A DNA stretch of 64,000 nt, taken from the NCBI GenBank assembly GCA_030648835.1, contig JAUSGT010000002.1, forward strand, positions 89,665 through 153,664, in the 5' to 3' direction. A program made the position numbers and the translations under genes. Below, in pieces: positions 1,177-47,098 of this stretch (its first letter is position 1; the number at the start of each line of letters is the position of its first letter). The stretch is from Candidatus Moraniibacteriota bacterium (GTDB taxonomy: Bacteria; Patescibacteriota; Minisyncoccia; Moranbacterales; UBA1568). A model generated the notes under the pieces. The model was given only the letters and a program-made list of their open reading frames with translations. It made no database searches and was not told the origin of the DNA.

Positions 1177-1458
1177 ATGAAGCATTTTGAAATGTGTGAC
1201 GCGCCAATTTGTGCAGACAGAGAAGCGTACGAAAACAATCCCAACTGGCAGAAAACGGTGTCTTGGCATCCCGGTGAGGCGGTGTGCGGGATGAAGCCGT
1301 ATGCAAAATGGCAGAAACGACAAACAAAAATTAACCGTTGGCTGTTAGCTGGGAAGCTAAAATATCCCGAACTTTTCTTCACGGTGGAAACACTTTTACG
1401 AAAGAAATTGTTGTATCGAGGAATAAAGGGCGACAACCCGGATGCGGAGATAGGGTAA
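1177..1458 (+). CDS. small Cys-containing hypothetical protein
   Basis: 93-aa ORF 13 nt after the previous stop, same strand; several Cys/His (CDAPIC...C); no recognisable domain. Confidence 0.3.
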   Translation: MKHFEMCDAPICADREAYENNPNWQKTVSWHPGEAVCGMKPYAKWQKRQTKINRWLLAGKLKYPELFFTVETLLRKKLLYRGIKGDNPDAEIG

Positions 1459-1660
1459 TTTGAAGAAAAAGTGCCACAGATGGGGCTGTCACAGAAGATG
1501 TAATGAGTAAATGGTGCCAATCTATGCCAAGAAAATAAAAAGCCTCAAATAAGCCTTCGATAACTTTAGTAGGACTGAGCTATAGTGAAAGCATTCTGTT
1601 AAGAGTTTTTTTGGGGAAAATCCCGATTGGGAGACTTGATTATAGGAACACATAAAGTGA

Positions 1661-2488
1661 ATGTTAAAACGCACTGATACAAAAATAATTATCTCTGGCT
1701 CCATAGTTGAAGTCCATTCTTACGTGGGTGAGCCATTGTATTATGGCTTTACTGTTTTCCCCAATAGTAAAACAAGAAGAAAGATCGAGGTCATTGATGA
1801 AGAAAGCCTGCTCCGAAAATCAGAATCAAGGAAAAGATCAATGAGAAGAGCCGGGTCAAATATTAGAAAGCTTGTGAATTCCAATGCGTGGCGATGGAAA
1901 AATTCAATAGGGATACCATATGAACCAATATTTGTCACGCTTACATTTAAAGATGATGTTCGAGATGTAAGAAAAGCTAATGCAGAATTTACACATTTTA
2001 TACGTCGTTTGAACTATAAAGTCTCCGGCAAATCCAATAAGTTTATTTTTAAGTACATATCGGTAATTGAGTTTCAAGACCTCAACCGGGGTGGAGTAAT
2101 ACACTACCATACCGTCTTCTTTAATTTACCAACTGCTGTAGCAGATATTCTTTCACAGATTTGGGGGCATGGGTTTATTGATAAAAAGAAAATAGAAGAA
2201 ATTGACAATGTGGGTGCTTATATTTCCAAGAGCTTATCTTCAGCGCACGATGATAGCCGTTTGGATGGAAATAAGCATTATTTTTCAAGTAGTGGGTTGC
2301 TTCAGCCAATCGAAATAAGAGAACAGGGTAAAGCCCAGGCTATTAAAAAGCTTCTTTTAGGAGAAAATATTGCTAAAGTAGTAGATAATTCCGACAGATA
2401 TCAAGGAAGAGTGGAGCGTGTTTCCTACCAACTGAATAAAAGCGAGACATTATCTGATACTATCCCGGAAGTATATAACTTACCATGA
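1661..2488 (+). CDS. rolling-circle replication initiator (HUH endonuclease superfamily Rep)
   Basis: 275 aa; three Rep motifs in canonical order: motif I 'FVTLTF', motif II 'GGVIHYHTVFF' (H-u-H), motif III 'GAYISKS' (Y-x-x-K). Confidence 0.55.
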   Translation: MLKRTDTKIIISGSIVEVHSYVGEPLYYGFTVFPNSKTRRKIEVIDEESLLRKSESRKRSMRRAGSNIRKLVNSNAWRWKNSIGIPYEPIFVTLTFKDDVRDVRKANAEFTHFIRRLNYKVSGKSNKFIFKYISVIEFQDLNRGGVIHYHTVFFNLPTAVADILSQIWGHGFIDKKKIEEIDNVGAYISKSLSSAHDDSRLDGNKHYFSSSGLLQPIEIREQGKAQAIKKLLLGENIAKVVDNSDRYQGRVERVSYQLNKSETLSDTIPEVYNLP

Positions 2489-2510
2489 ACAATTTAATTT
2501 TTAGAAAATT

Positions 2511-3056
2511 ATGGGAAATAAATATCTAGTCGAAGAATGTTTCTTCTTAACGCCCAGAGATGTTGGGAGAAGGTTTGATCGTATTAGGAAGTTAGGAACC
2601 AATATTCTTGAAGGGCGGGATGATATTTCATACTGGTTTGATGATATGTCTGAGCCGACTTGTCTTTTTGTTAGCGTAGATGGTCACGAGCCACAGAAAT
2701 TTATTTGGGAGCCAGTTGAACTGACATTTGGTGAAGCAGCTTATTTTCATTGTGGATGCGGGTACAAAGCACGAAAGTTATACTTACTCCCAAGTGGTAA
2801 TGAATTCAAATGCCGAAAATGCCATAACTTACGTTACGCACTCTCAGTCCTGAATAGCAAATCTATTGCAGGCAGGGTCATCTATCGTGCGAACCGCCTC
2901 CATAAACTTGCAAACAGCCGAGCATGTATGGGTAGGATTTTTTATGATGGTAACTTTACAAAAAGGTTTGAGAGATTCCTTGGTCTTTGCGATAAAGCGG
3001 GTCTGGAGGACATAGTCAGGGGTGCAAACGCTTTAAAAGAGCTGGTTAGGGGGTAA
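2511..3056 (+). CDS. zinc-ribbon hypothetical protein
   Basis: 181 aa; 'CGCGYK...EFKCRKCHN' four-Cys ribbon; begins 23 nt after the Rep stop. Confidence 0.45.
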   Translation: MGNKYLVEECFFLTPRDVGRRFDRIRKLGTNILEGRDDISYWFDDMSEPTCLFVSVDGHEPQKFIWEPVELTFGEAAYFHCGCGYKARKLYLLPSGNEFKCRKCHNLRYALSVLNSKSIAGRVIYRANRLHKLANSRACMGRIFYDGNFTKRFERFLGLCDKAGLEDIVRGANALKELVRG

Positions 3057-3167
3057 GTATTTCAACGAAGTCAGAATATTTGCCTTCTCTATTTACAGAG
3101 GAAACGTCATAGCACAAAGTGTCTTGTAGGAGTAGTTTTATTTTAGTTGCTGCAGAAAAAGTTACTT

Positions 3168-3177
3168 TCTGTTATAA
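3168..3177 (+). promoter_or_regulatory. extended -10 promoter element (TGtTATAAT) upstream of MTase
   Basis: 'ctgTTATAAT' with TGn extension 9 nt upstream of ATG 3186; no good -35. Confidence 0.35.
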
Positions 3178-3185
3178 TACATCCT

Positions 3186-4220
3186 ATGGATTCAATATTG
3201 AGTACAATTGACCTCTTCGCTGGTATTGGCGGTATCCGCAAAGGCTTTGAAAGAGCTGGTTTTGAAACACTCTATGCGGCAGATATCGATGCGGGATGTA
3301 AGGTTACGTATGACTTAAACTATAAAAATACGCCACTCACTTTGCAGAGCGTGACGGATATTGTTCCGGAGACCCTTCCGAACTTTGGTGTATTGTTGGC
3401 TGGATTTCCCTGTCAATCCTTTTCTGTCGCTGGTGGCAAAGCAGGTTTTGCTGACAAAGGACGAGGGGATCTCTTTTTTGAAATAATGAAGGTGCTTGAA
3501 GTGAAAAAACCCGCTGCAGTATTTCTTGAGAATGTTAAACATTTAGCGAAACACGATCATGGTCGGACCTTCGTCATAATAAAGGAACTTCTTGAGCGCT
3601 GTGGCTACCATGTAAAATTTGCGATGATGAATAGTGCCGAATATGGCAATGTTCCACAAAATAGAGACCGCATATATATTGTGGGCTTTCGAGACATGAA
3701 TGTATCCAATGCATTTGAATTTCCATCAAAAAAGATTTTGGAGCATTCTATAACAGATTTGCTTGAGACTGATGTTCCAGAAAAATATTATTACAAAAAA
3801 GGTTGGCTTTATGACCGTATAAAAAGCTTGGGTATGAAGCGAGGGCTAATATATCAGTGGCGTAGAGTTTATCTGAGAGAAAATAAAAGTGGTGTTTGTT
3901 TCACCTTGACTGCAAACATGGGGATGGGTGGACACAACGTCCCACTTGTTCGAGATGCAAAAGGGTTGCGTCGCCTTACACCACGTGAGTGCGCTCATTT
4001 GCAAGGATTCCCTAAAGGTTTTAAATTGCCGACGTCTTTACCGGATTCTCGTTTATATAAACAGATTGGTAACTCTGTAACAATTTCTGTAGTGGAGCGT
4101 ATCGCTCGTAACATCCGTAAGGCATTGGAGACGCCTAAAAAATCATATCGAGTACGTGTTGAAAGGAGGGCATCCGTTGATCAACAGGTTACTAAATCAT
4201 TCGTTGAGCTGGTTACTTAG
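3186..4220 (+). CDS. DNA (cytosine-5)-methyltransferase
   Basis: Motif I 'DLFAGIGG', IV 'GFPCQSFSVAG', VI 'VFLENVKHL', VIII 'QNRDRIYIVG', X 'IGNSVTISV'. Start placed at ATG 3186 (MDSILSTIDLFAGIGG) because the longer ORF start at 3147 would include the promoter. Confidence 0.9.
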   Translation: MDSILSTIDLFAGIGGIRKGFERAGFETLYAADIDAGCKVTYDLNYKNTPLTLQSVTDIVPETLPNFGVLLAGFPCQSFSVAGGKAGFADKGRGDLFFEIMKVLEVKKPAAVFLENVKHLAKHDHGRTFVIIKELLERCGYHVKFAMMNSAEYGNVPQNRDRIYIVGFRDMNVSNAFEFPSKKILEHSITDLLETDVPEKYYYKKGWLYDRIKSLGMKRGLIYQWRRVYLRENKSGVCFTLTANMGMGGHNVPLVRDAKGLRRLTPRECAHLQGFPKGFKLPTSLPDSRLYKQIGNSVTISVVERIARNIRKALETPKKSYRVRVERRASVDQQVTKSFVELVT

Positions 4221-4286
4221 TTAAAATAGCGTAGCGCTCTATTACCTCTGATTCGGTGGTATTTTTTGTTTTTCAAAAAAGTAACT

Positions 4287-4321
4287 TGACAAAACGGTAG
4301 TAGGGGTATACTATTAGTAAT
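4287..4321 (+). promoter_or_regulatory. sigma70-like promoter for the GHKL operon
   Basis: 'TTGACAaaacggtagtaggggTATACT', -35/-10 with 15-16 nt spacer, ~10-40 nt upstream of the first ORF. Confidence 0.4.
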
Positions 4322-4327
4322 AGCGTT

Positions 4328-4579
4328 ATGCCCTTGCTAAGGGCGATATGTATAAAAATTATGAAGAACCAAAAACGTATTCGCTTTGAACGCCTAGCTG
4401 TATATCGTACTAACGAAGTCCTGAAGCGCCTTAAGGTGCTTGGAAACTGTGGTAATCGTAGTGCATACGAATACAGTGAAGAGGAAATAAATAAAATATT
4501 TGCTGAAATAGAACGGAATGTTAGAGATTCACGTGCGAAGTTCCATTTTCCGAAGGGTCGTAAAGAATTCCGTCTCTAA
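4328..4579 (+). CDS. small basic hypothetical protein (possible regulator); first gene of GHKL operon
   Basis: 83-aa ORF (alternative start MKNQK at 4361); stop is 2 nt before the next ATG. Confidence 0.4.
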   Translation: MPLLRAICIKIMKNQKRIRFERLAVYRTNEVLKRLKVLGNCGNRSAYEYSEEEINKIFAEIERNVRDSRAKFHFPKGRKEFRL

Positions 4580-4581
4580 AT

Positions 4582-6477
4582 ATGCTCAAAGCTCAAAAGA
4601 AAAAAAAGAGTGAAGTTGTATTAGGCTGGCACTTCCCAGCCCTTGATCATGCCGACACAGAGGGGCTAAATGATCCGCTTTTGGGATACTTTGGTGGCGA
4701 TTATAACCAATGTGTGGCAAGAGAAGTGATCCAGAACTCCATAGATGCACGGGACGACACGGAATGCCCAGTGTTTGTTAAATTTGAAAAATTAAAACTA
4801 CCCATAGCAGATGTCCCTGGTATTGCAGAATTGAAAGAGCATATAAAAATTTGTTTGGCTCAGGCCAAAAGCGAACACAACGACAAAGCGGAAAAGCACT
4901 ACAGGGATGCCCTAAAGATTGCCACGGCAACGTCCATTGATGTTCTCAGAGCTTCTGACTACAATACGTCAGGTTTGGACGGTGTCGACGACGATAAAAA
5001 AGGGAAATGGCACCGGCTTGTGAAGGCGGTTGGAGAGAATCAGCTTACAGGGGCGGGTGGTGGATCATACGGTATTGGAAAAGGAGCACCTTTTGTTGCT
5101 TCTATGATGAGAGCAGTCTATTACTCTACAAAAAACTCTTCTGGTGAGGTTATTTTTCAGGGAAAAGCACGGCTACTTAGCCATCAGTGGAAGGGTAGTG
5201 ATTATCGCGGAGTAGGGTCGTTTGGCATCGAGGGCTATAAGTCTGTAAGAGAGGAAGGTAAAATCCCAGAAATTTTTATACGAGACAAACAAGGAACGGA
5301 CATCAATATCATAGGGTACAATGTAACGCCGTCATGGAAGGACGAACTTGCAAAGTCAGTGCTGGATAATTTTTGGATGGCCATACATTCCAACGACCTG
5401 GAAGTTATCATAAGTGATGGGGCGGATGAAATCAGTATAAACCGAGCAACCCTACCAGAACTTTTAGAGAAACATAGCCGGGATGAGGGCCTCATATATT
5501 ACCGCACGGTTATCAATCCGACTCGTACGTTCAAGAAGCAACTTCCTTTGCTTGGAGCCTGCACTTTCTATGTGCGCATTGAGGAAAGATTTCCGAGGGA
5601 GACAATATATATGCGACGACCAAAAATGCGGGTGAGCAAATGGCGTTTTCCAAAGACCTTACATGAACCGCATGCCGGATTGTTCATTTGCGAGGATGTA
5701 GAGGGGAATAAACTACTACGAAACTTAGAGCCTCCTGAGCATGATGAATGGAAGGCTACTCTAGATCCTCTGCAGGGGAAAGAAATCATAGCAGCAGTAC
5801 GTTCATGGATTACGGGGAATTTGAAGGAGTTGGCGGCGGAGGAAAGCGACGACTCAGAAGAAGTCCCTGGATTGGAGAAGTTTCTGCCTTACGATGAAGA
5901 CTCTGAGAAGGAATCACTTGCCAACAAGAGCAGGAGCAAGCCGGCGGACTTCGCGGAATTAGAAGAAGGGCCGGTTGAAGTTGGAGCTGAACGTGAGGAA
6001 ACCGAGGACGAAGTTGAGGATCATGTAAGGAAACCTTCAAGCCTCACTCCATCGAGTGGCGATGATCCAAATTATCGTCATGGCAATGGGAGCAGGCGCC
6101 ACCGTAGAGGGGGAGGCGGAAACAACAACGTGGACCCTGATGGTGACGCCATTAAGCGCATTGATACGTCCGCAGTAAAATTCAGAATTATTCATACTGG
6201 GCGATCAGAGATGGGAAATGCTGAGTACTGTCTCGTTATTGAGCCTCTTGCCGATGTAGAAGGGGCTATAGATGTTGTAGCTCTTGGGAACGACTCTACA
6301 GTGTACCCGATTCCACTTGCATATGCCGAACCTTGGGATAAAGAATCGGGTTCCTTCAGTATCGAAAAATCTTATATCAATGGACTGAAGCTTAAGAAGG
6401 GGAAAGAACTACGCATCAAGATTGGTACAATGTCGAAGTCTAGGTATGCCCTTGGTATAGAAAATTATGAAAGCTAA
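4582..6477 (+). CDS. GHKL-superfamily (Bergerat-fold) ATPase with acidic disordered C-terminal region
   Basis: 631 aa. N-box 'REVIQNSIDA' (E-x3-N-x2-D). G2 box 'GGGSYGIGKGAPF' (Hsp90/MORC/TopoVI-B-like GxxGxG). Long D/E-rich low-complexity stretch before a C-terminal ~130-aa domain. Confidence 0.7.
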   Translation: MLKAQKKKKSEVVLGWHFPALDHADTEGLNDPLLGYFGGDYNQCVAREVIQNSIDARDDTECPVFVKFEKLKLPIADVPGIAELKEHIKICLAQAKSEHNDKAEKHYRDALKIATATSIDVLRASDYNTSGLDGVDDDKKGKWHRLVKAVGENQLTGAGGGSYGIGKGAPFVASMMRAVYYSTKNSSGEVIFQGKARLLSHQWKGSDYRGVGSFGIEGYKSVREEGKIPEIFIRDKQGTDINIIGYNVTPSWKDELAKSVLDNFWMAIHSNDLEVIISDGADEISINRATLPELLEKHSRDEGLIYYRTVINPTRTFKKQLPLLGACTFYVRIEERFPRETIYMRRPKMRVSKWRFPKTLHEPHAGLFICEDVEGNKLLRNLEPPEHDEWKATLDPLQGKEIIAAVRSWITGNLKELAAEESDDSEEVPGLEKFLPYDEDSEKESLANKSRSKPADFAELEEGPVEVGAEREETEDEVEDHVRKPSSLTPSSGDDPNYRHGNGSRRHRRGGGGNNNVDPDGDAIKRIDTSAVKFRIIHTGRSEMGNAEYCLVIEPLADVEGAIDVVALGNDSTVYPIPLAYAEPWDKESGSFSIEKSYINGLKLKKGKELRIKIGTMSKSRYALGIENYES

Positions 6478-7297
6478 AAATATATCATATCCATATCCCG
6501 TCCTTGGTAACGATGACGATGTAGAAGGCAAGTTCGATGCTTCTTTTAAGCATATGCTCAAAAGAGACAATATCATTCTCAAGTCTCGCTTTTCGCTGAA
6601 GAATAAAACGCTTGAAAGACTTATCAGGGAAAAGAAGGCTGTCTACACTGTAGAAGTAGAATGCCCGAGCACGTTTTATAGGAAGCTTTTTTCTACCATT
6701 GAAACGGAAGCAGATTTTGTTTTGTCTTCGACTGTGGTACGAGAGCATGTTTCCGTAGGCTTCTTTATCCGTGCGACAGAAACCTTAGCCGAATACGAGA
6801 TAACCGGGTGTCATGCTGATTATGAAGGCTTTAAATTCGATGTAGGGCCTGGGGATGTATTGGCGCTTGGTGGTTACACATCTTTCATTGCGGAAAAGGA
6901 TTTTGACCCGATGCAACCGGCTGTTTCGTCTCTTATTGCTATTAAACAGGGAAATAAGGATGTAGGGCCAATGGAAATCGACTATTCGCAAGACAAGATA
7001 TTCATCAAACTTTCCCGCAAAGATCATAAGAACTACTCGCAAATAAAAGGGCAAGTAACTATTGCTGGCGTACTTCATTCATCTATAGTGTTGCCGGTCC
7101 TGGCGGACGCCATCCAGCTTGTTTTGTCTGAAGACGAAGAAACGCAGGAGAGACATTGGTTTCGCCGGCTTGAAGTAATTTTGCGACATCAGGGTCTCGA
7201 GGGAGAGGATCCGCTAATTAGTGCCCAGAAAGTTTTGCACGGTCCAATCGAGCGTTGCTTGTCTGGGCTTGTGGAAACCGCTGAGGCAGATGAATAA
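6467..7297 (+). CDS. hypothetical protein (GHKL operon gene 3)
   Basis: 276-aa ORF overlapping the GHKL stop by 11 nt; no recognisable motif. Confidence 0.5.
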   Translation: MKAKNISYPYPVLGNDDDVEGKFDASFKHMLKRDNIILKSRFSLKNKTLERLIREKKAVYTVEVECPSTFYRKLFSTIETEADFVLSSTVVREHVSVGFFIRATETLAEYEITGCHADYEGFKFDVGPGDVLALGGYTSFIAEKDFDPMQPAVSSLIAIKQGNKDVGPMEIDYSQDKIFIKLSRKDHKNYSQIKGQVTIAGVLHSSIVLPVLADAIQLVLSEDEETQERHWFRRLEVILRHQGLEGEDPLISAQKVLHGPIERCLSGLVETAEADE

Positions 7298-8642: not shown

Positions 8643-8838
8643 CTCACTATTTGATGATGATACATATGCCGGATCATGAGAAAAGGGCGGAGAAGCTGAA
8701 AGTGACGCATAGTTGATAAGTAGGTGAAACTGTTATATCCAGTGACAATTTGCTAATATGTGAATAAGCGCAACAATTGAATAGGAAAGTAGCCTAAAGT
8801 TGCCGGAGTTTTCTCCGGTAACCATGGTGAAAAATAAG

Positions 8839-8883
8839 TCTCGTCAGAGTAAAAAAACCGATCATTAGGTTTTGCTCTGACGA
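8839..8883. repeat. perfect 10-bp inverted repeat hairpin (ctcgtcagag / ctctgacgag) in intergenic region
   Basis: Seen directly; ~25-nt loop; no T-tract; between the GHKL operon and the pAgo module. Confidence 0.3.
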
Positions 8884-8972
8884 GCCATATCTGGAAACGG
8901 ATGTGGAGAGTGCAAACTCTCACCTAGTGGTCGGCTTTTTGTATTTCAAGTGAGCAATTAATCAAAATCATT

Positions 8973-41162: not shown

Positions 41163-41248
41163 TGGTGCCGAGAGAGAGACTTGAACTCTCATGCTCTTGC
41201 GAGCGCTGGGTCCTAAACCCAGTGTGTCTACCATTCCACCATCTCGGC
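41163..41248 (-). tRNA. tRNA-Leu (anticodon UAG), CCA encoded
   Basis: Reverse complement is GCCGAGATGGTGGAATGGTAGACAC-ACTGGG-TTTAGGA-CCCAG-...-GAGAG-TTCAAGT-CTCTC-TCTCGGC-A-CCA. 7-bp acceptor, long variable arm, U33, G37. Confidence 0.85.
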
Positions 41249-41253
41249 ATTTC

Positions 41254-41634
41254 CTAAACTACCTTGGCTTTTCCTCCGAATAGCCCGAGAAGGCGGGTGA
41301 CTTCTTCCTTGACCGGGCCATCATTTGCATATTCCCCGTGATGACGTGTCCCTTCTCCGTAGGTGTGTTTTTTCTGATCCAAATGGAGGCTGAGTGAGAG
41401 GGAAGTGCCTTTCAAAAGAGTATAGCAGTGGAAGCGAGGATAGCCGGCGCTCGCCAGGACGCGCACGAAGCTCATTTCGCCTCCGCCCGCGACACGCTGC
41501 GCGGCGTTCTTATCAGGTGCTTCCGCATGCTGAAAAGCGTAACCGGCGCCTCGCATAAGCGAAACAGGATTTTCCGTAATGGCTTCAATAAGAATTTTCA
41601 TATATTGGCTATGGTTTTTTCCATTTACCTGCAA
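41254..41634 (-). CDS. T-fold protein, dihydroneopterin-aldolase (FolB)-like
   Basis: 'KILIEAITENPVSLMRGAGYAFQHAE' resembles the FolB N-terminus (IEQLSVITTIGVYDWEQ); probable start MKIL at ~41601; weak. Confidence 0.3.
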   Translation of the reverse strand: MQVNGKNHSQYMKILIEAITENPVSLMRGAGYAFQHAEAPDKNAAQRVAGGGEMSFVRVLASAGYPRFHCYTLLKGTSLSLSLHLDQKKHTYGEGTRHHGEYANDGPVKEEVTRLLGLFGGKAKVV

Positions 41635-41938
41635 TCAAATTCATTTTCTTTTGTTTTACCCAACCCTTAATTTGTTTCTCTCGTCTGCGTGTTGTGATAA
41701 GGGACTCGTGAGGTTCATAATATACTAATTTTACTGGACGGCGCATCTTTGTCCATAAAGCTGCTTCACCAGAGTTATGTTCTTTTACGCGGTTTCGTAA
41801 ATCAGCTGTTGAACCACAATAGATACTGGTGTCTTTACAGACGAGTAAATAAACAAAGAATGTCCCTTCGACAGGCTCAGGGCACTCGACTTCTTGTATA
41901 TTATTGATGAACTTAGCCATATCTTGGTCGCAGACCAT
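41609..41938 (-). CDS. GIY-YIG domain protein (YhbQ/UPF0213-like)
   Basis: 'FFVYLLVCKDTSIYCGSTADLRNRVKEHNSG' GIY-YIG core; lies between tRNA-Pro and tRNA-Leu. Confidence 0.6.
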   Translation of the reverse strand: MVCDQDMAKFINNIQEVECPEPVEGTFFVYLLVCKDTSIYCGSTADLRNRVKEHNSGEAALWTKMRRPVKLVYYEPHESLITTRRREKQIKGWVKQKKMNLIAGKWKKP

Positions 41939-41972
41939 GAGCGAACCTGAACCTAAGTGAAGGTGAGTCGAA

Positions 41973-42046
41973 TGGTCGGAGTGCCGGGAATTGAACCCGG
42001 ATTACACGAACCCGAATCGTGCGTAATACCGTTATACCACACTCCG
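41973..42046 (-). tRNA. tRNA-Pro (anticodon CGG), CCA encoded
   Basis: Reverse complement is CGGAGTG...CACGA-TTCGGGT-TCGTG...CCGGG-TTCAATT-CCCGG-CACTCCG-A-CCA; G37. Confidence 0.8.
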
Positions 42047-42140
42047 TTTTTAACTGAATAACGAATTAAGAATTATGAATCAAAAACTTTCCTTCTTATT
42101 TTTCTCGCGATTCCTAATTCATGATTCTTGATTCATTTGT

Positions 42141-43640
42141 CTACTCTACCCAATGTCTTTTTTTGATCTGCTCCACGTCCTCGGTTCGTTTTTCTTCGAT
42201 TTTTTCTTTGGCGAGTTCCCGCAGAGTTTCGATGGGACTTTCTTTCAGTTCAGCGGCCCTTTTGAGGAGAGTTTCTTTCGTGTTGAGTTTGGAATTTTCG
42301 ATGACTTCAGCGAGGAGTACATCAAGCAGGGCGCCGATGGTTGGTCCAGCCGGGATGCCCAGTTTTTCTATGAGGTCGGTGCCTTTGACTTTGAGCATCT
42401 TTACGGAAACAGCATCCTTCGAAACCTTCTCGATCATATATTCGAGGTGGCGCAACTTGTACGGTTTGCCTTTGGGTACGCCGGAACCCAGTCTATCACC
42501 GATGCGCACCGCCATCAAGTCATCCATATTTTCGAGGCCGACTCGCTTGATAAGGCGCCTGACGGAAGCCTCGGTCACCTCATCGACATTGTAATAGAAG
42601 AGATGGTTGTCGACGAGTAGTGTCGCCTTTTTCACGACTGCCTTGGAAAAACGCAGGCGGGTAAGTATTTTTTCCGTTATACGGGCGCCGATATGATCAT
42701 GGTTGTAGAAAGTGGAATTGTAGCCTTCTCCCTTTTTGGCTTGGGGTTTGCCAACATCATGAAGGAGCGCGGCGAGACGTGTCTCGAGCTTTGTGGATGG
42801 GCAGGTCGCGAGAGCGCGCAGATTGTGTTCCCAAACCGTGTAAATATGGTGGAGGTTTTGAGTGACGCCGATACCCAGTTCCAGTTCGGGCAAGATGAAA
42901 TGGAGGAGTCCGGTTGTCTCAAGCATCTCGATGCCTTCTTTTGGGCTGGCGGAGAGAATGATTTTGGAAAGTTCATCGCGGATGCGTTCTTGGGAAATAT
43001 GAGCGAGATTGCCCGCCAGTTTTTGGATTGTCACAAAGGTTTTCTCCTCGATATGCCAGCTGTGGGTCGGCTTGGTGACCTTCGGATCGCGCAGTTCGGC
43101 GAAGAAGCGCACGGCGCGCATCAGTCGCAAGGCATCTTCTTCAAAACGCTCTTCCGGATCACCGACGGTACGGATGATTTTTTTCTCGACGTCTTCTACC
43201 CCGTCAAACGGATCGACGAGCTCCCACTGAGTAGTTTTTTTCGGACCATACGCGATGGCATTGATGGTAAAATCACGTCGGGCCAGATCTTCCTCAAGCG
43301 ACTTTGTGAACAGGACTTTTTTGGGACGACGTTTGTCCGTGTATTCGGATTCGATGCGGTAGGTAGTGACTTCGATAATATCATTCTCGTGAGTGGGATC
43401 GGTGGTTGCGCTAAAGCGCGGCACTTTTACGCCGACGGTGCCAAAATCATTTTCGTAAAAACTGTCGGGAAAGAGTTTGAGAACTTTCTCCGGGGTGGCA
43501 TCGGTAGTGATATCCCAGTCTTTGGGCTCACGTTCCAGAATGAGGTCGCGCACGCACCCGCCCACCACAAATGCCTCAAATTGAGCCTTATTCAAGGTTT
43601 CGATGATATCCTGAACCGGTTGTGGAATCTTCTTGATCAT
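42141..43640 (-). CDS. cca: CCA-adding tRNA nucleotidyltransferase with HD domain
   Basis: 'FVVGGCVRDLIL' Pol-beta-like head; 'LLHDVGKP' HD motif; 499 aa. Confidence 0.85.
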   Translation of the reverse strand: MIKKIPQPVQDIIETLNKAQFEAFVVGGCVRDLILEREPKDWDITTDATPEKVLKLFPDSFYENDFGTVGVKVPRFSATTDPTHENDIIEVTTYRIESEYTDKRRPKKVLFTKSLEEDLARRDFTINAIAYGPKKTTQWELVDPFDGVEDVEKKIIRTVGDPEERFEEDALRLMRAVRFFAELRDPKVTKPTHSWHIEEKTFVTIQKLAGNLAHISQERIRDELSKIILSASPKEGIEMLETTGLLHFILPELELGIGVTQNLHHIYTVWEHNLRALATCPSTKLETRLAALLHDVGKPQAKKGEGYNSTFYNHDHIGARITEKILTRLRFSKAVVKKATLLVDNHLFYYNVDEVTEASVRRLIKRVGLENMDDLMAVRIGDRLGSGVPKGKPYKLRHLEYMIEKVSKDAVSVKMLKVKGTDLIEKLGIPAGPTIGALLDVLLAEVIENSKLNTKETLLKRAAELKESPIETLRELAKEKIEEKRTEDVEQIKKRHWVE

Positions 43641-43735
43641 AGTGCTTTAAGCATAGCGACAAATTGTCGTTTTGCCTATAGATGTAACTAAAACAGCGGT
43701 TGAACCGCTGTTTTTCATAATTCACAATTCATTTC

Positions 43736-45526
43736 TTAGAGGCTGCGTTTTTTGGCTTCTTCTTTGTAGCAGATGAGGGTGTCGCCGACGACGATTTTGA
43801 AAGCGCCTTCGAAGACGACACCGCATTCGTTGCCCTGGCCGACTTCATCGGCATTGGCTTTGTTGCGTTGGAGGTTCTGCATTTTTCCCGCTCCCACGAT
43901 CTCATCGCCGCGTTTGATTTCCAGCATCGAGCCGCGGAGCATCTTGCCTTCGGCGACACGTCCGCCGACGATCATATCGTGCTTACCGGTTTTGAAGATG
44001 GCCAAGACCGAAAGCCGGCCATAATCCGTGCGGACGATTTCCGGCGCGAGCATGGCAGTCAATTTTTCTTTGACGGCTTCGACGAGTTTGTAAATGATAT
44101 TGTAGGTCTCGATAACAACACCGCTCTTGTCGGCCATACGTTTGGCGACCGGAGTAGGGGTGCTATTGAAACCGAGAACAAGAGCCCCGGCACTTTCCGC
44201 GATTTTGATATCCGATTCGGTAATGGCGCCGACACCTGAGGAAATAATATTGAGCGCGACTTCGTCGGACTGGATAGTGAAGAGAATTTGCTCGATGGCT
44301 TCAAGCGATCCTTGGACGTCAGCCTTCAGGATGATCTCCAGTTTTTTCTTCTCGCTGTCTTCGTCTTGAATCTTGGTCAGTTTTTTTGCCACCGCTTCTT
44401 TGGATTTTGTACGAGCGAGACTTTTTCCACTGACTACTTGGACAATGTCATTTACCTGAGGCGCAACATTGAATCCGTATATCGTGGCGGGGACGGACGG
44501 CTCGGCATGTTCAATATTTTTCCCGCTCCAATCTTCGATACGGCGGATACGGCCGAAAGCGGTCCCGGCCACGATGTCTTGACCGACTTTGAGGGTGCCG
44601 GTACGCACCAACGCAGTCGCCACCGGACCTTTTTGCGGGTCGAGGTGGGATTCGAGGATAATGGCAAACCCATCGCGTTTGTTATCGGCACGAAAATCTT
44701 CCACTTCGGCGATGAGGAGGATACTATCGAGGAGTTTATCGATATTGATATTTCCTTTGGCGCTGATTTCATTGCACATGGTGTCGCCGCCCCATTCTTC
44801 GAAAAGAATACCGTGTTCGGCAAGTTCCTGTTTTACGCGTTCCGGTTTGGCATCGGGCTTGTCGATTTTGTTGATGGCCACGATGACCGGAAGTTTGTAT
44901 TCTTTCAAATATTCGATGACTTCTTTCGTCTGAGGGCGCACTCCATCATCGGCGGCCACGACCAGGATGGCGATGTCGGCGATCGAAAGCCCGCGTTTGC
45001 GCATCGCGGCAAAAGCTTCATGTCCCGGTGTATCGACGAAGGTGATGAGTTGCTTGTGCTTCTTTACCTGGTAGGCGCTGATATGCTGGGTGATGCCACC
45101 CGCTTCGCCCGCGGCCACATTGGTCTTGCGTATCGTATCGAGAAGCGTTGTCTTGCCATGATCGACATGACCAAGGATGGTGACGATGGGCGGACGGGGC
45201 GAAAGGTTCTTCCCGGAATTTTTTTCTTCAGCCAGGAGTTTGCCTAAACTTTCTATGGTGAATTGTCCGGCGGCGACAGCTTCTTCGGCAGGCGCGGTCT
45301 CGAAGCCGAGGTCCTGGGCGATGATGCTCGCGGTATCAAAATCAATTTCTTCGTTGATGGTGGCGAGGATATTGTTTTTCATCAGTTCGGTGATGATAGC
45401 TGCGACCGGCAAGCGCAAAATCTCGCTCAATTTTTTGACCGTGACGGAAGAGGGGAGAGAGACCTGTTTCGCGGGTTCTTTGGGGACCTCTTTGGGAGTT
45501 TCAATTACGGGTTCGATTGGGGACAT
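43736..45526 (-). CDS. infB: translation initiation factor IF-2 (short form)
   Basis: G domain '[12 protein letters not shown]', 'DTPGHEAF', 'NKID'; 596 aa. Confidence 0.9.
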   Translation of the reverse strand: MSPIEPVIETPKEVPKEPAKQVSLPSSVTVKKLSEILRLPVAAIITELMKNNILATINEEIDFDTASIIAQDLGFETAPAEEAVAAGQFTIESLGKLLAEEKNSGKNLSPRPPIVTILGHVDHGKTTLLDTIRKTNVAAGEAGGITQHISAYQVKKHKQLITFVDTPGHEAFAAMRKRGLSIADIAILVVAADDGVRPQTKEVIEYLKEYKLPVIVAINKIDKPDAKPERVKQELAEHGILFEEWGGDTMCNEISAKGNINIDKLLDSILLIAEVEDFRADNKRDGFAIILESHLDPQKGPVATALVRTGTLKVGQDIVAGTAFGRIRRIEDWSGKNIEHAEPSVPATIYGFNVAPQVNDIVQVVSGKSLARTKSKEAVAKKLTKIQDEDSEKKKLEIILKADVQGSLEAIEQILFTIQSDEVALNIISSGVGAITESDIKIAESAGALVLGFNSTPTPVAKRMADKSGVVIETYNIIYKLVEAVKEKLTAMLAPEIVRTDYGRLSVLAIFKTGKHDMIVGGRVAEGKMLRGSMLEIKRGDEIVGAGKMQNLQRNKANADEVGQGNECGVVFEGAFKIVVGDTLICYKEEAKKRSL

Positions 45527-45529
45527 AGT

Positions 45530-46048
45530 TTATACGGTAGGGGGTTTTCCTTGAATGGCTTGAGTGATGGTGGTTTTTTCTTCTTCGGTAAGAGGAAAAT
45601 TGTTTTCCTGTCCGAGGACTACCGGTTTGGAGTAGACACGTGTGCCTTCACGGGTGTGGAGGGAGGTAATCACTACTCCGGAATTTTTCCCGTCGAGGAG
45701 TGCGACACAGAAACTCTGATTGCCACCGACCTCTTTGAATGGGTTGAAGCGCATAACGGCTGTTTTGTGAATGCTCTTCATCCCGAGTTCGCGCAGACGA
45801 TTGGAAATTTCAAAGAGTTCCTGGATTTCTTGATCCAATTCTTTGGTTTCCTGCAATTGGTCGAGAAGAACTTTTTCCAAATCCTTGGCCTCTTTGCCGG
45901 AAAAAAAAGTGTGTAATTTCTTTTTCAAGCGCCTGTTTTGTATCCACAGGAGAATGACGACGAAGAGCAGAATGATCTCACCGCCAAGGAGGGCAGCCAG
46001 GCTTCCGTACACGAAAAGCGGAGAAATGGCTTGGATAAAACCAAACAT
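45530..46048 (-). CDS. membrane-anchored hypothetical protein upstream of infB
   Basis: 172 aa; N-terminal TM, coiled coil; stop is 3 nt before the infB start. Confidence 0.45.
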   Translation of the reverse strand: MFGFIQAISPLFVYGSLAALLGGEIILLFVVILLWIQNRRLKKKLHTFFSGKEAKDLEKVLLDQLQETKELDQEIQELFEISNRLRELGMKSIHKTAVMRFNPFKEVGGNQSFCVALLDGKNSGVVITSLHTREGTRVYSKPVVLGQENNFPLTEEEKTTITQAIQGKPPTV

Positions 46049-46159
46049 ACGACCGAATAATTAGTCTTCTCGCTTACGGTATCACGATTTTGGCTCGGTG
46101 TAAACTCTGAATGCCTATTATGGGATGAAGCAATCGTTTCTTCGTTTGGCGTACGATCT

Positions 46160-46498
46160 TCAGGCAGATCGGGAGAGGATTATCAAAGAGATTATGGCAA
46201 GGGTGATGCCAAATATCTCCAGAGAGTTTATTTTTTCTTGAAAGTAAAATACCCCTACTAAAGTTAAAACGATTATGCAGCTAACGCCATAGAGAACACC
46301 GAGAGTTGAAAGCTTTACGCTTCTCATCACAAAGAACCAGCCAAATGCAGTCATCCCGTAGATTATAGCGCCGAGCACAAGTGTTTTCCAGCCTGAAAAG
46401 GCACTTTGCAACGAAGCGTGCTTTATGAGAGCGTCGGCAAAAACGGTGATGATGCTGAGTCCTATGCCGATTAGAAAAGCAACCAATATGGGGTTCAT
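46160..46498 (-). CDS. small multidrug-resistance (SMR/EamA-like) 4-TM transporter
   Basis: 113 aa starting MNPILVAF (ATG 46498); four hydrophobic helices. The longer ORF would overlap the tRNA-Ser gene. Confidence 0.55.
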   Translation of the reverse strand: MNPILVAFLIGIGLSIITVFADALIKHASLQSAFSGWKTLVLGAIIYGMTAFGWFFVMRSVKLSTLGVLYGVSCIIVLTLVGVFYFQEKINSLEIFGITLAIISLIILSRSA

Positions 46499-46554
46499 GA
46501 CGAATGCGTTTAATAAGAGATTTTCTTGGTTCGGAAATCCTTTTCGAAAAATTG

Positions 46555-46641
46555 CGGAGATGGGAGGATTCGAACCTCCGATACGGTTTCCCGTATGGCA
46601 GTTTTCGAAACTGCTGCCTTCAACCACTCGGCCACATCTCC
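46555..46641 (-). tRNA. tRNA-Ser (anticodon CGA), CCA not encoded
   Basis: GGAGATG-TG-GCC-GAGTGGTTGAA-GGC-A-GCAGT-TTCGAAA-ACTGC-[long variable arm ATACGG/CCGTAT]-GGAGG-TTCGAAT-CCTCC-CATCTCC-G, followed by CAA. Confidence 0.85.
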
Positions 46642-46645
46642 GTAA

Positions 46646-46909
46646 CTACTCAGTACTTTTTCTAAGAATGCCCTTCAGTAACCATTGTATTCGTTCACGA
46701 CCCTTTCCGCTTTTCAAAAACTTTTCTTCTCTGGTTGCATCTTCTTTATTTGAAAATGCTTCATAATATACCAACTTCCATGGAATCAAGTTTTTTGTAA
46801 ACGGAACCGCCCCACTGTTATGTTCTTTCAGCCTTCTTTTTAAATCATTTGTTACACCTTTGTACAATCTCTCATTCTTTTTACTTTGCAAAATATAAAC
46901 GTAATGCAT
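46646..46909 (-). CDS. GIY-YIG domain protein (YhbQ-like)
   Basis: 'HYVYILQSKKNERLYKGVTNDLKRRLKEHNSG'; stop is 4 nt before the tRNA-Ser 5' end. Confidence 0.6.
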   Translation of the reverse strand: MHYVYILQSKKNERLYKGVTNDLKRRLKEHNSGAVPFTKNLIPWKLVYYEAFSNKEDATREEKFLKSGKGRERIQWLLKGILRKSTE

Positions 46910-46921
46910 ATGGTTTTATAA

Positions 46922-46970
46922 ACCACTCTCCGCCCAAGGCGGACCAGCCTCGGGCTGGGGCCACATCTCC
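46922..46970 (-). repeat. partial copy of tRNA-Ser 5' segment (GGAGATGTGGCC...GAGTGGTT) with 28-nt hairpin insertion
   Basis: 12-nt exact direct repeat of tRNA nt 1-12 plus 'GAGTGGTT' (D-loop) flanking the GIY-YIG ORF. Confidence 0.5.
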
Positions 46971-47098
46971 TTTGTTCCTCGTTCTTCAGTTGTACAGGAA
47001 AATACCGGTTGAATCAACCCTGCCAGCTTTTATTTCGAGTCTTTTTGGTGTACAATGAGAGCGTAGTCAAAGCAAAAGAAAAATTAAATTTTCATACT

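Follow-up and report, generated by a model that had tools for sequence, protein, structure and literature searches.

Small GIY-YIG nuclease cassettes that probably target tRNA genes in Patescibacteria

Minimal GIY-YIG nucleases and their described relatives

Among the closest described systems are the Ssn endonucleases (SsnA/NTS; CDD cd10448), single-domain GIY-YIG proteins of 94 amino acids (aa) that cleave single-stranded DNA (ssDNA) site-specifically (Chenal et al. 2025, PMC11893778). To be bound by these enzymes, a hairpin repeat has to be ssDNA; cleavage occurs a few nucleotides (nt) upstream of it, with no activity on double-stranded DNA (dsDNA) or on RNA, and SsnA cuts even when the hairpin is assembled from two separate strands (PMC11893778). 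The repeats are found nearby for 71% of the Ssn homologs, and on both sides for 42%; the authors point out that the ‘NTS-ssnA-NTS’ arrangement resembles an insertion sequence and compare it with IS200/IS605 and REP/RAYT (PMC11893778). Here, we analyze two genes of minimal GIY-YIG nucleases, GIY2 (open reading frame (ORF) 46646-46909) and GIY1 (ORF 41609-41938), in a stretch of 64,000 nt from a Candidatus Moraniibacteriota contig (JAUSGT010000002.1; hereafter, the window). These are the sole GIY-YIG ORFs among the ORFs of the 64-kilobase (kb) window, and we consider it likely that they encode the nucleases of small selfish cassettes whose insertion targets are tRNA genes. All coordinates are window positions, and all window features are on the minus strand unless stated otherwise; tRNA genes were called with ARAGORN and Rfam, domains were called with Pfam, and the related loci used for comparison are numbered L001, L002 and so on.

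The GIY-YIG domain of Pfam is the only domain in GIY2 (87 aa) and GIY1 (103 aa). By both sequence and structure, the best matches of GIY2 are the UPF0213/YhbQ/YazA proteins and the nuclease domain of Slx1: the nearest solved structures by sequence are those of UPF0213, BH0048 and EF2693 (1zg2 at 7e-11 and 40% identity, also 1ywl), followed by Slx1, and the AlphaFold (AF2) model (pLDDT 90) has the GIY-YIG fold and best matches UPF0213 (1zg2), Slx1 (7cq2, TMq 0.66) and the catalytic domain of I-TevI. Given these matches of sequence and model, GIY2 is a bare GIY-YIG catalytic domain, with no DNA-binding domain. Slx1 requires Slx4 and has a RING domain; we know of no link of UPF0213/YhbQ/YazA or Slx1 to tRNA genes or hairpin modules. 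The homing endonucleases Seg and I-TevI cut dsDNA and have a separate DNA-binding domain, and no such separate, sequence-specific domain is present in GIY1 or GIY2. To our knowledge, neither Seg nor I-TevI is accompanied by tRNA remnants, hairpin end modules or a replacement tRNA. The free-standing GIY-YIG homing endonuclease SegB resembles the loci described here in that its gene lies among tRNA genes, in the T4 tRNA cluster, and is present in some relatives and absent from others; SegB is inherited preferentially together with the flanking tRNA sequence (PMC2330249).

The GIY2 protein is 100% identical to a protein from a Candidatus Moranbacteria metagenome-assembled genome, and a word-index search yielded 322 matches with 60-88% identity in many classes of Patescibacteria. 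A profile scan reached 21,874 clusters (at 50% identity) at E<=1e-3 and 5,199 at E<=1e-10, almost all of 77-130 aa, and the family alignment shows little or no variation at the catalytic Tyr, Tyr/Gly, Arg, His and Glu positions. A phage origin was rejected, the phage matches being only distant (at most 43% identity). Between the window copy of GIY2 and its homologs in L001, L002 and L003, synonymous divergence (pS) is 0.72-0.99, that is, saturated, and nonsynonymous divergence (pN) is 0.07-0.12; given that pN is low while pS is saturated, the nuclease gene has, by this measure, been kept functional over long times under strong purifying selection. In four other family proteins (P0243, P0248, P0264 and P0270), two GIY-YIG stretches are joined in one chain of 157-214 aa, which may reflect either fused tandem cassettes or gene-calling read-through.

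A homolog from Azospirillum, encoded between sufB and sufC, is 43% identical to GIY2 and 33% identical to GIY1, has UPF0213 as its best PDB match, and is flanked on both sides by paired GTCATCCCCGCGAAGGCGGGGATC hairpins. These hairpins resemble what we take to be the core of dRS3/NTS (ATTCCC...GGGAAT), and the sequence of the window hairpins is unlike that core. Given the similarity to this hairpin-flanked homolog, GIY1 and GIY2 fall, like it, into the broad group of minimal GIY-YIG nucleases that have hairpins as partners; they are Ssn-like, with putative placement in cd10448 and putative ssDNA activity. With Ssn, the two proteins share a single GIY-YIG domain of ~90 aa (~90-100 aa for Ssn), the same spacing of the catalytic Tyr/Tyr/Glu, and short hairpin-forming inverted repeats near the gene. 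They differ in that the hairpin module H (see below) is a pair of 6-bp hairpins of another sequence that lies inside tRNA loops, together with tRNA remnants and an intact tRNA. Furthermore, insertion polymorphism is documented for the tRNA cassettes, and neither tRNA nor Patescibacteria are ever mentioned in the description of Ssn (PMC11893778).

The cassette at the tRNA-Ser gene

The locus of GIY2 (cassette 2) begins with an inferred tRNA-Ser promoter, TTGATT-N17-TACAAC (46989-47017), a motif conserved in the relatives, which is followed by an 18-nt leader and by a 5' remnant, GGAGATGTGGCC (46959-46970), that copies nt 1-12 of tRNA-Ser (12/12 match to 46630-46641). The remnant is broken by a hairpin module, H (46929-46958), which consists of CCAGCC-CGA-GGCTGG and then TCCGCC-TTG-GGCGGA (CCAGCCCGAGGCTGG and TCCGCCTTGGGCGGA), as defined by fold and covariation; directly after H comes delta, GAGTGGTT (46921-46928), a copy of nt 13-20 of tRNA-Ser. 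Then, 11 nt separate delta from the ATG of GIY2 at 46909, and the stop codon of this gene for an Ssn/UPF0213-like single-domain nuclease (46646-46909; Pfam GIY-YIG, 2.5e-17) is separated by only 4 nt from an intact tRNA-Ser(cga) (46554-46641; 60.8 bits by Rfam, also called by ARAGORN). The original prediction, which was made from the sequence alone, had noted that the first 12 nt and a D-loop segment of tRNA-Ser are repeated upstream of the second GIY-YIG ORF, and both copies proved to be exact; the hairpin insert between them, given as 28 nt, is present as well but measures 30 nt and consists of two adjacent hairpins of 6 bp each.

A search for GGAGATGTGGCC across the window found exactly two copies, the remnant and the tRNA itself, compared with 0.2 expected by chance. 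This count, along with the match of remnants to their own tRNAs in related loci (see below), excludes a chance origin of the repeat. The repeat cannot be a promoter element either, a possibility that had been raised against the prediction, because the promoter motif sits upstream of the remnant in the window and upstream of the tRNA in the cassette-free sites of relatives. A generic promoter consensus scan missed TTGATT-N17-TACAAC, the motif being recognized by conservation alone, and neither the scan nor inspection by eye found a promoter for tRNA-Ser within the GIY2 ORF or in the gap between GIY2 and the tRNA. Between the tRNA-Ser repeats, the ORF list and Pfam contain no tyrosine or serine integrase and no Cas1. 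A group I intron was rejected as well, given that there is no Rfam intron match at the gathering threshold or at E<=5 and that the downstream tRNA is complete and uninterrupted. The neighbours of cassette 2 are genes for a methyltransferase, an EamA-like protein, DUF4446 and IF-2.

The comparison of orthologous sites provides the principal evidence of mobility. In a metagenome scan with the neighbouring DUF4446 protein, 22 syntenic loci were collected and mapped by tblastn and ARAGORN. Flanked by the methyltransferase and DUF4446 genes, the tRNA-Ser(cga) site contains a cassette in the window, L002, L083 and L086 and is empty in six syntenic relatives, L088, L089, L092, L093, L095 and L097, where the intergenic stretch is 91-248 nt long. 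TTGATT-N17-TACAAC is found 8-50 nt upstream of the intact tRNA in the empty sites and upstream of the remnant in the occupied ones; because the tRNA promoter precedes the tRNA in the former and the remnant in the latter, this comparison places cassette 2 inside the ancestral tRNA-Ser gene, such that the remnant marks the old gene start. At the tRNA-Pro site, GIY1 is present only in the window and in the syntenic L105 (89% identity) and is absent from 12 syntenic loci.

The nuclease genes at the occupied tRNA-Ser sites do not behave like conserved housekeeping genes. Their identity to the window GIY2 is 84% in L002 (IF-2, 69%) and drops to 52% in L083 (IF-2, 92%) and 44% in L086 (IF-2, 94%), that is, in the two closest relatives; a homolog with 88% identity occurs at another genomic place in L001, 3 nt upstream of tRNA-Ser(gga). 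Presence and absence at a fixed site combined with a phylogeny at odds with that of the host is the pattern by which homing endonucleases are recognized, and the disagreement among nuclease phylogeny, site occupancy and host phylogeny is as expected of an element that comes and goes. The tRNA-Ser(cga) alleles are likewise discordant with the host tree, judging from their sequences: that of the window differs from those of its closest relatives L086 and L083 at 19-20 of the 88 positions, and the alleles of L086, L083, L092 and L002 show 1-3 differences among themselves, with IF-2 identities to the window from 94% down to 69%. Empty and occupied sites, the constant position of the promoter and the discordant GIY identities all support the originally proposed mobile cassette that targets tRNA genes. 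The suggestion that it is homing-endonuclease-like held for the mobile cassette and not for the protein, which resembles Ssn and UPF0213 in being a minimal nuclease and lacks the multi-domain build of a classical homing endonuclease.

The H module of the window folds as two hairpins (z = -4.2) and is the only copy in the window. Its canonical form is [NNNGCC-CRA-GGCNNN][NNNGCC-TYG-GGCNNN], and in other loci it mostly precedes the start codon by 39-70 nt. Among 25 distinct versions of H, not one of the 300 stem cells is unpaired, and 5 pairs change in a compensatory manner (42 cells), a result that was reached in none of 500 shuffles. We regard H as a conserved and functional end module of the cassette. 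More than 30 relatives share with the window a covarying module that precedes GIY2; in L037 and L086 the module bounds the element at both ends, and the window copy has it on one side only. Only one G-U pair occurs among the 300 cells, and H reads alike on either strand, the CAA-type loop preceding the TTG-type loop in both cases; the near-absence of G-U pairs and the two-strand symmetry hint at a structure that functions in DNA, on both strands, rather than at an RNA element. In other subfamilies, the two hairpins at this place differ greatly in sequence, so that the constant feature is the architecture and not the sequence. A long-range 9-bp pairing between the two hairpin cores was discarded (no covariation and a mismatched centre), as was an origin of H from local flanks by P-nucleotide-like palindromes, given that the sequence of H is shared by different loci and bears no relation to the flanks. 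No Rfam family matches H or the leader of GIY1.

Such loci are not limited to the vicinity of the window. A scan of one genome per species identified 80 loci of the GIY2 family, to which L001 and L002 were added (82 in total). In 49 of these, a tRNA on the same strand starts within 150 nt downstream (tRNA-Ser in 39 loci, with all four isoacceptors represented, tRNA-Tyr and tRNA-Leu in 3 each and other tRNAs in 4), and in 8, a same-strand tRNA ends within 140 nt upstream, which makes 57 loci with an adjacent tRNA; in bacteria, the class II tRNAs, which have a long variable arm, are those for Ser, Tyr and Leu. In most of the loci, a copy of the 5' part of the locus' own downstream tRNA is present upstream of the ORF. 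In 14 distinct loci of the D-loop type, the upstream 12-mer has on average 0.43 mismatches to its own tRNA and 3.84 to the tRNA-Ser of other loci, and the match of remnants to their own tRNAs was reached in none of 20,000 permutations (0/20000). The remnant is always broken by the hairpin module, after which 5-12 more nt of the tRNA follow. The position of the module in the tRNA (x, in sequence numbering) is in the D loop, at 12-13 as in the window or at 16-21, in the anticodon loop, at 34-37, or in the T loop, at 69. In a third architecture, an intact tRNA (Gln, Gly or Asn) is followed by a hairpin, the ORF, and a 14-nt repeat of the tRNA 3' end.

Several distant members of the family without a nearby tRNA (L044, L048, L049, L053 and L060) have another upstream motif, TTAACCCGCCAAAATTT, in place of the two-hairpin module. 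In L039, a GIY2-family ORF (3001-3258, 62% identical) is located inside a 2.9-kb 16S rRNA gene (2896-5772), ~70 nt from its 5' end, and a match to a group II intron domain is found just downstream (6034-6111). Given the location of this ORF inside the 16S rRNA gene, the GIY2 family may also target rRNA genes.

The flank of the tRNA-Ser site is variable as well. Among close relatives, the stretch from tRNA-Ser to DUF4446 ranges from ~0.05 to 3 kb (L083, 3054-5354; L086, 3898-7000; L088 and L089) and contains accessory genes, for example, those for an aminotransferase, a metallophosphoesterase and a pentapeptide-repeat protein. A larger island downstream of tRNA-Ser in L083 and L086 was considered and rejected, these being ordinary cargo genes with no integrase. 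In L095, a (GTAA)n microsatellite (6664-6720) lies directly downstream of tRNA-Ser(cga), and in L002, five T4SS_pilin (PF18895) genes (1363-3887) lie beside the syntenic block and are absent from the matching side of the window.

Complete elements, insertion and alternative explanations

Three loci, L037, L061 and L086, contain a split tRNA with both remnants. The layout of L037 is the most complete: a 5' remnant (nt 1-36), H, nt 37-41, a linker, the GIY ORF, an intact tRNA-Ser(tga), a second linker, TCTTG, H again, and a 3' remnant (nt 37 to the end). The two remnants form a single tRNA, with acceptor strands GGAGGGG and CCCCTCC, that is split in the anticodon loop and abuts at nt 36/37 without target duplication, and the intact tRNA differs from this remnant tRNA in the D loop, the anticodon stem and the T stem. 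In L086, the 5' remnant begins with GGAGATG and is broken by two modules, and the intact tRNA is followed by ...CTCG, H and AATCCTCTCATCTCCGCCA, in which CATCTCC pairs with the GGAGATG of the 5' remnant. In L061, nt 1-69 are upstream and nt 70 to the end downstream of the insert. The intact tRNA allele differs from the remnants in L083, L086, L022, L011 and L037; in the first four of these, remnant and intact tRNA are the same isoacceptor and differ by compensatory changes in the stems.

Reduced and compound forms are present as well. In L011, there is no ORF, only remnant, H, delta, linker and tRNA; in L041 (521-1240), two GIY cassettes are arranged in tandem; and in L003 (3259-3412) and L020 (3247-3446), a second remnant-hairpin unit lies between a GIY cassette and the tRNA. 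Judging from the order in such stacked loci, the newest insertion would be the one nearest the tRNA. Remnants of the 3' part are common downstream of tRNAs, where H is found as well.

These layouts invite comparison with two kinds of mobile elements. With IS200/IS605 and REP/RAYT, the cassettes share a small nuclease, subterminal hairpins that in those systems are recognized as ssDNA, the existence of hairpin-only derivatives, and, in L037, the lack of target duplication; hairpins are present at both ends in L037 and similarly in L086, but not in the window copy. They differ from IS200/IS605 in three respects: the protein encoded by the only ORF is of the GIY-YIG kind instead of an HUH Y1 transposase, a tRNA loop serves as the target, and a replacement tRNA is brought. 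Integrative elements at tRNA genes (phages, integrative and conjugative elements, casposons) similarly disrupt a tRNA, leave a functional tRNA and produce a displaced fragment as a direct repeat. These elements, however, are kilobases long, encode a tyrosine or serine integrase or Cas1, and target the 3' part of the tRNA, whereas the tRNA cassettes are ~0.35-0.5 kb long and have no integrase, usually displace the 5' part, and break the tRNA in the D, anticodon or T loop. Integration of a circle that would produce a chimeric tRNA (nt 1..x of the element and x+1 to the end of the native gene) was rejected on two grounds: the intact tRNA of L083 has a 3' part that pairs with the 5' part of the same tRNA and not with the remnant, and in ectopic sites the remnant equals the 5' end of the intact tRNA.

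Under the explanation that we favour, an element bounded by hairpin modules, and carrying the nuclease gene together with a replacement tRNA, would split the resident tRNA within a loop. Recombination between the tRNA repeats would later remove the right end and the 3' remnant, yielding the form seen in the window, and the intact downstream tRNA-Ser would keep the host supplied with a working tRNA. Given the 4-nt gap and the lack of a promoter-like site between GIY2 and the tRNA, the latter is most probably transcribed through the cassette, and the nuclease and the tRNA would most likely be co-transcribed from the tRNA promoter. By homology with Ssn, the nuclease would recognize H in ssDNA and nick 5' of it, that is, at the junction of tRNA and element; because H is two-fold symmetric, the nicks would fall at both outer junctions with the tRNA halves. 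Insertion itself probably occurs by one of two routes. The first is homing, in which a break in a naive tRNA gene would be repaired from the occupied allele, with the tRNA halves serving as homology arms, a route that fits the combination of native remnants with foreign intact tRNAs; the second would be ssDNA transposition into tRNA loops in the manner of IS200/IS605.

Several observations weigh against this explanation. No tRNA was found within the +/-3 kb flanks in 22 of the 82 family loci. The window copy of cassette 2 has neither a right-end hairpin module nor a 3' remnant, and that its tRNA was carried by the element is deduced solely from the relatives. Both the mobility of the cassettes and cleavage by the nuclease are deduced from comparison with relatives and with Ssn. 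A classical homing nuclease cuts the empty allele, which has no H. The intact tRNA within the element would be expected to be cut as well, and its immunity is not accounted for; this is a weak point of every version of homing. The saturated synonymous sites between cassette copies indicate old lineages rather than recent transfers; H and the identity of remnant and tRNA persist over the same span, either under direct constraint or through repeated resetting by new insertions. Finally, the tRNA allele of type B is linked to three cassette types and occurs also in the empty site of L092, so that it could be ancestral rather than cargo; the recombination between tRNA repeats invoked above could also remove the whole cassette, a possible origin of the type B allele in L092.

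A more elaborate version of homing, which we regard as quite improbable, is that the leader (tRNA nt 1..x, hairpins, nt x+1..x+8), either transcribed or single-stranded, guides the nuclease to position x of an uninterrupted tRNA gene. In this case, the hairpins would bind the 87-aa nuclease and the tRNA-identical arms would align it on the complementary strand. If so, the guide would rewrite itself for each new tRNA, since insertion puts the element behind the 5' part of the target, and the cassettes would amount to a self-reprogramming, nucleic acid-guided homing system built on the smallest known nuclease domain.

Explanations that dispense with a mobile element carrying its own tRNA have to account for the same observations. 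The nucleases could be domesticated host ssDNA enzymes that were recruited to positions beside tRNA genes for the sake of strong co-expression and might, for instance, control transforming DNA that enters the cell, as has been proposed for Neisseria SsnA, in which case the remnants and hairpins would be relics or recognition sites, with no present mobility. Such a role would be compatible with the purifying selection at saturated synonymous divergence and with the very large size of the family (the 5,199 clusters noted above), and Neisseria SsnA indeed modulates transformation (PMC11893778). It is difficult to reconcile with the absence of both window cassettes from close syntenic relatives and with the unrelated variants that occupy the same site, with remnants that are identical to the local tRNA despite the ancient divergence of the nuclease genes, or with the stacked, ORF-less and split-tRNA forms, which indicate repeated insertion, so that we consider domestication unlikely. 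An RNA-level role, in which remnant, hairpins and delta form a functional 5' leader of the mRNA (for stability, translation control or pre-tRNA processing) and the match to tRNA is kept for RNA function, appears to us highly improbable. The leader is situated between promoter and ORF and would be transcribed, its hairpins are highly conserved, and for GIY1-family genes the start codon lies inside a long helix (see below), but a single G-U pair in 300 stem cells and the likeness of H on both strands are the properties of a DNA site, H is found also downstream of tRNAs and without any ORF, Rfam yields no match, and the Ssn enzymes act on ssDNA, not on RNA (PMC11893778).

In-situ duplication of the target is of more direct concern for the window, where it is possible for the D-loop class to which cassette 2 belongs. 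In this scenario, the element would comprise only H, delta and the GIY gene, and staggered cuts at position +1 of the tRNA and at loop position x would duplicate nt 1..x, akin to the long duplications at CRISPR repeats or those made by casposons, with no tRNA carried. It would readily account for a remnant that starts exactly at position 1 of the tRNA and is identical to the downstream tRNA in ~22 loci, including those of four Ser isoacceptors, Tyr and Leu, and for the lack of a matching 3' remnant in loci of the D-loop class including the window. What makes this scenario, too, rather unlikely in our view are the remnants of L037, L061 and L086, which abut without duplication around an insert that holds an intact tRNA, the compensatory stem changes by which remnant and intact tRNA alleles differ in L083, L086, L022 and L011, and the lack of an encoded integrase.

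Literature searches found no description of GIY-YIG cassettes that reside in or split tRNA genes. The targeting of tRNA together with a carried replacement tRNA appears to be undescribed, and the loci compared here belong to a widespread, apparently new class of tRNA-gene-splitting mini-elements. If the cassettes are indeed mobile, the Ssn-type mini-nucleases would have a concrete function in nature, that of driving a mobile element whose target, the loops of tRNA genes, is defined. Introns and inteins persist inside essential genes by splicing out; these cassettes would represent a third way, in that they appear to bring a replacement copy and to take over the promoter. Such insertion would also explain the 5' and 3' tRNA fragments around Patescibacteria tRNA genes and the tRNA alleles at odds with the host tree, which is relevant for annotation, for phylogeny and for recognizing the replacement of tRNA genes. 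Pairs of nucleases and hairpins that differ in specificity are candidate ssDNA tools.

The tRNA-Pro cassette and adjacent features

Cassette 1 represents a second family, which attaches right after the 3' end of tRNA-Pro(CGG) and leaves this tRNA undisrupted. In the window, the attachment site is tRNA-Pro(cgg) (41973-42046; ARAGORN and Rfam), followed by the leader (41864-41972), delineated by the alignment and consensus fold of 5 loci, and by GIY1 (41609-41920; Pfam GIY-YIG, 6.5e-15), whose annotated start at 41920 yields 103 aa (109 aa from the start at 41938). The protein is 100% identical to the annotated protein P0121 and 46% identical to GIY2. Genes of the GIY1 family follow tRNA-Pro(cgg) in 5 of 5 loci with differing genomic neighbours. 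The original prediction had both GIY-YIG ORFs abutting tRNA genes, which is the case for GIY2; GIY1 starts 34-52 nt downstream of tRNA-Pro and does not adjoin tRNA-Leu(tag) (41163-41248; ARAGORN and Rfam).

The leader of cassette 1, which is conserved in the GIY1 family, comprises a conserved linker (TTCGACT...) and a variable hairpin, followed by the segment TTCGCTCATGGTCTGCGACCA, in which the CGACCA of the tRNA-Pro 3' end is repeated. Next come the start codon at 41920 and GAAGTCGAGTGCCCTGAGCCTGTCGAAGGG, an inverted-repeat arm within codons 10-19 of GIY1, which encode the conserved ‘EVECPEPVEG’ stretch. In the consensus fold of the 5 loci, the tRNA 3' end and the linker pair with the N-terminal codons in a helix of 13 bp that is strongly conserved, with little covariation; on its own, the window copy does not fold significantly. 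After tRNA-Pro, L095 (10996-11165) and L086 (11251-11370) contain ORF-less inserts of ~100 nt with hairpins in the T loop of a duplicated tRNA 3' part, and the insert in L095 additionally has a second copy of the 46-nt downstream flank.

Next to cassette 1, and not part of it, is a conserved gene for a protein of 115 aa (41254-41601). In all syntenic relatives, too, this gene (48-78% identity) is flanked by tRNA-Pro and tRNA-Leu; its product has the motif ...PRFHCY...TRHHGEYA... and no Pfam or NCBIfam match. Elsewhere in the window, at 8791-8921 on the plus strand, there is a full-length match to the LOOT RNA of Rfam (RF03000), with a score of 82 bits compared with the gathering threshold of 46.4.

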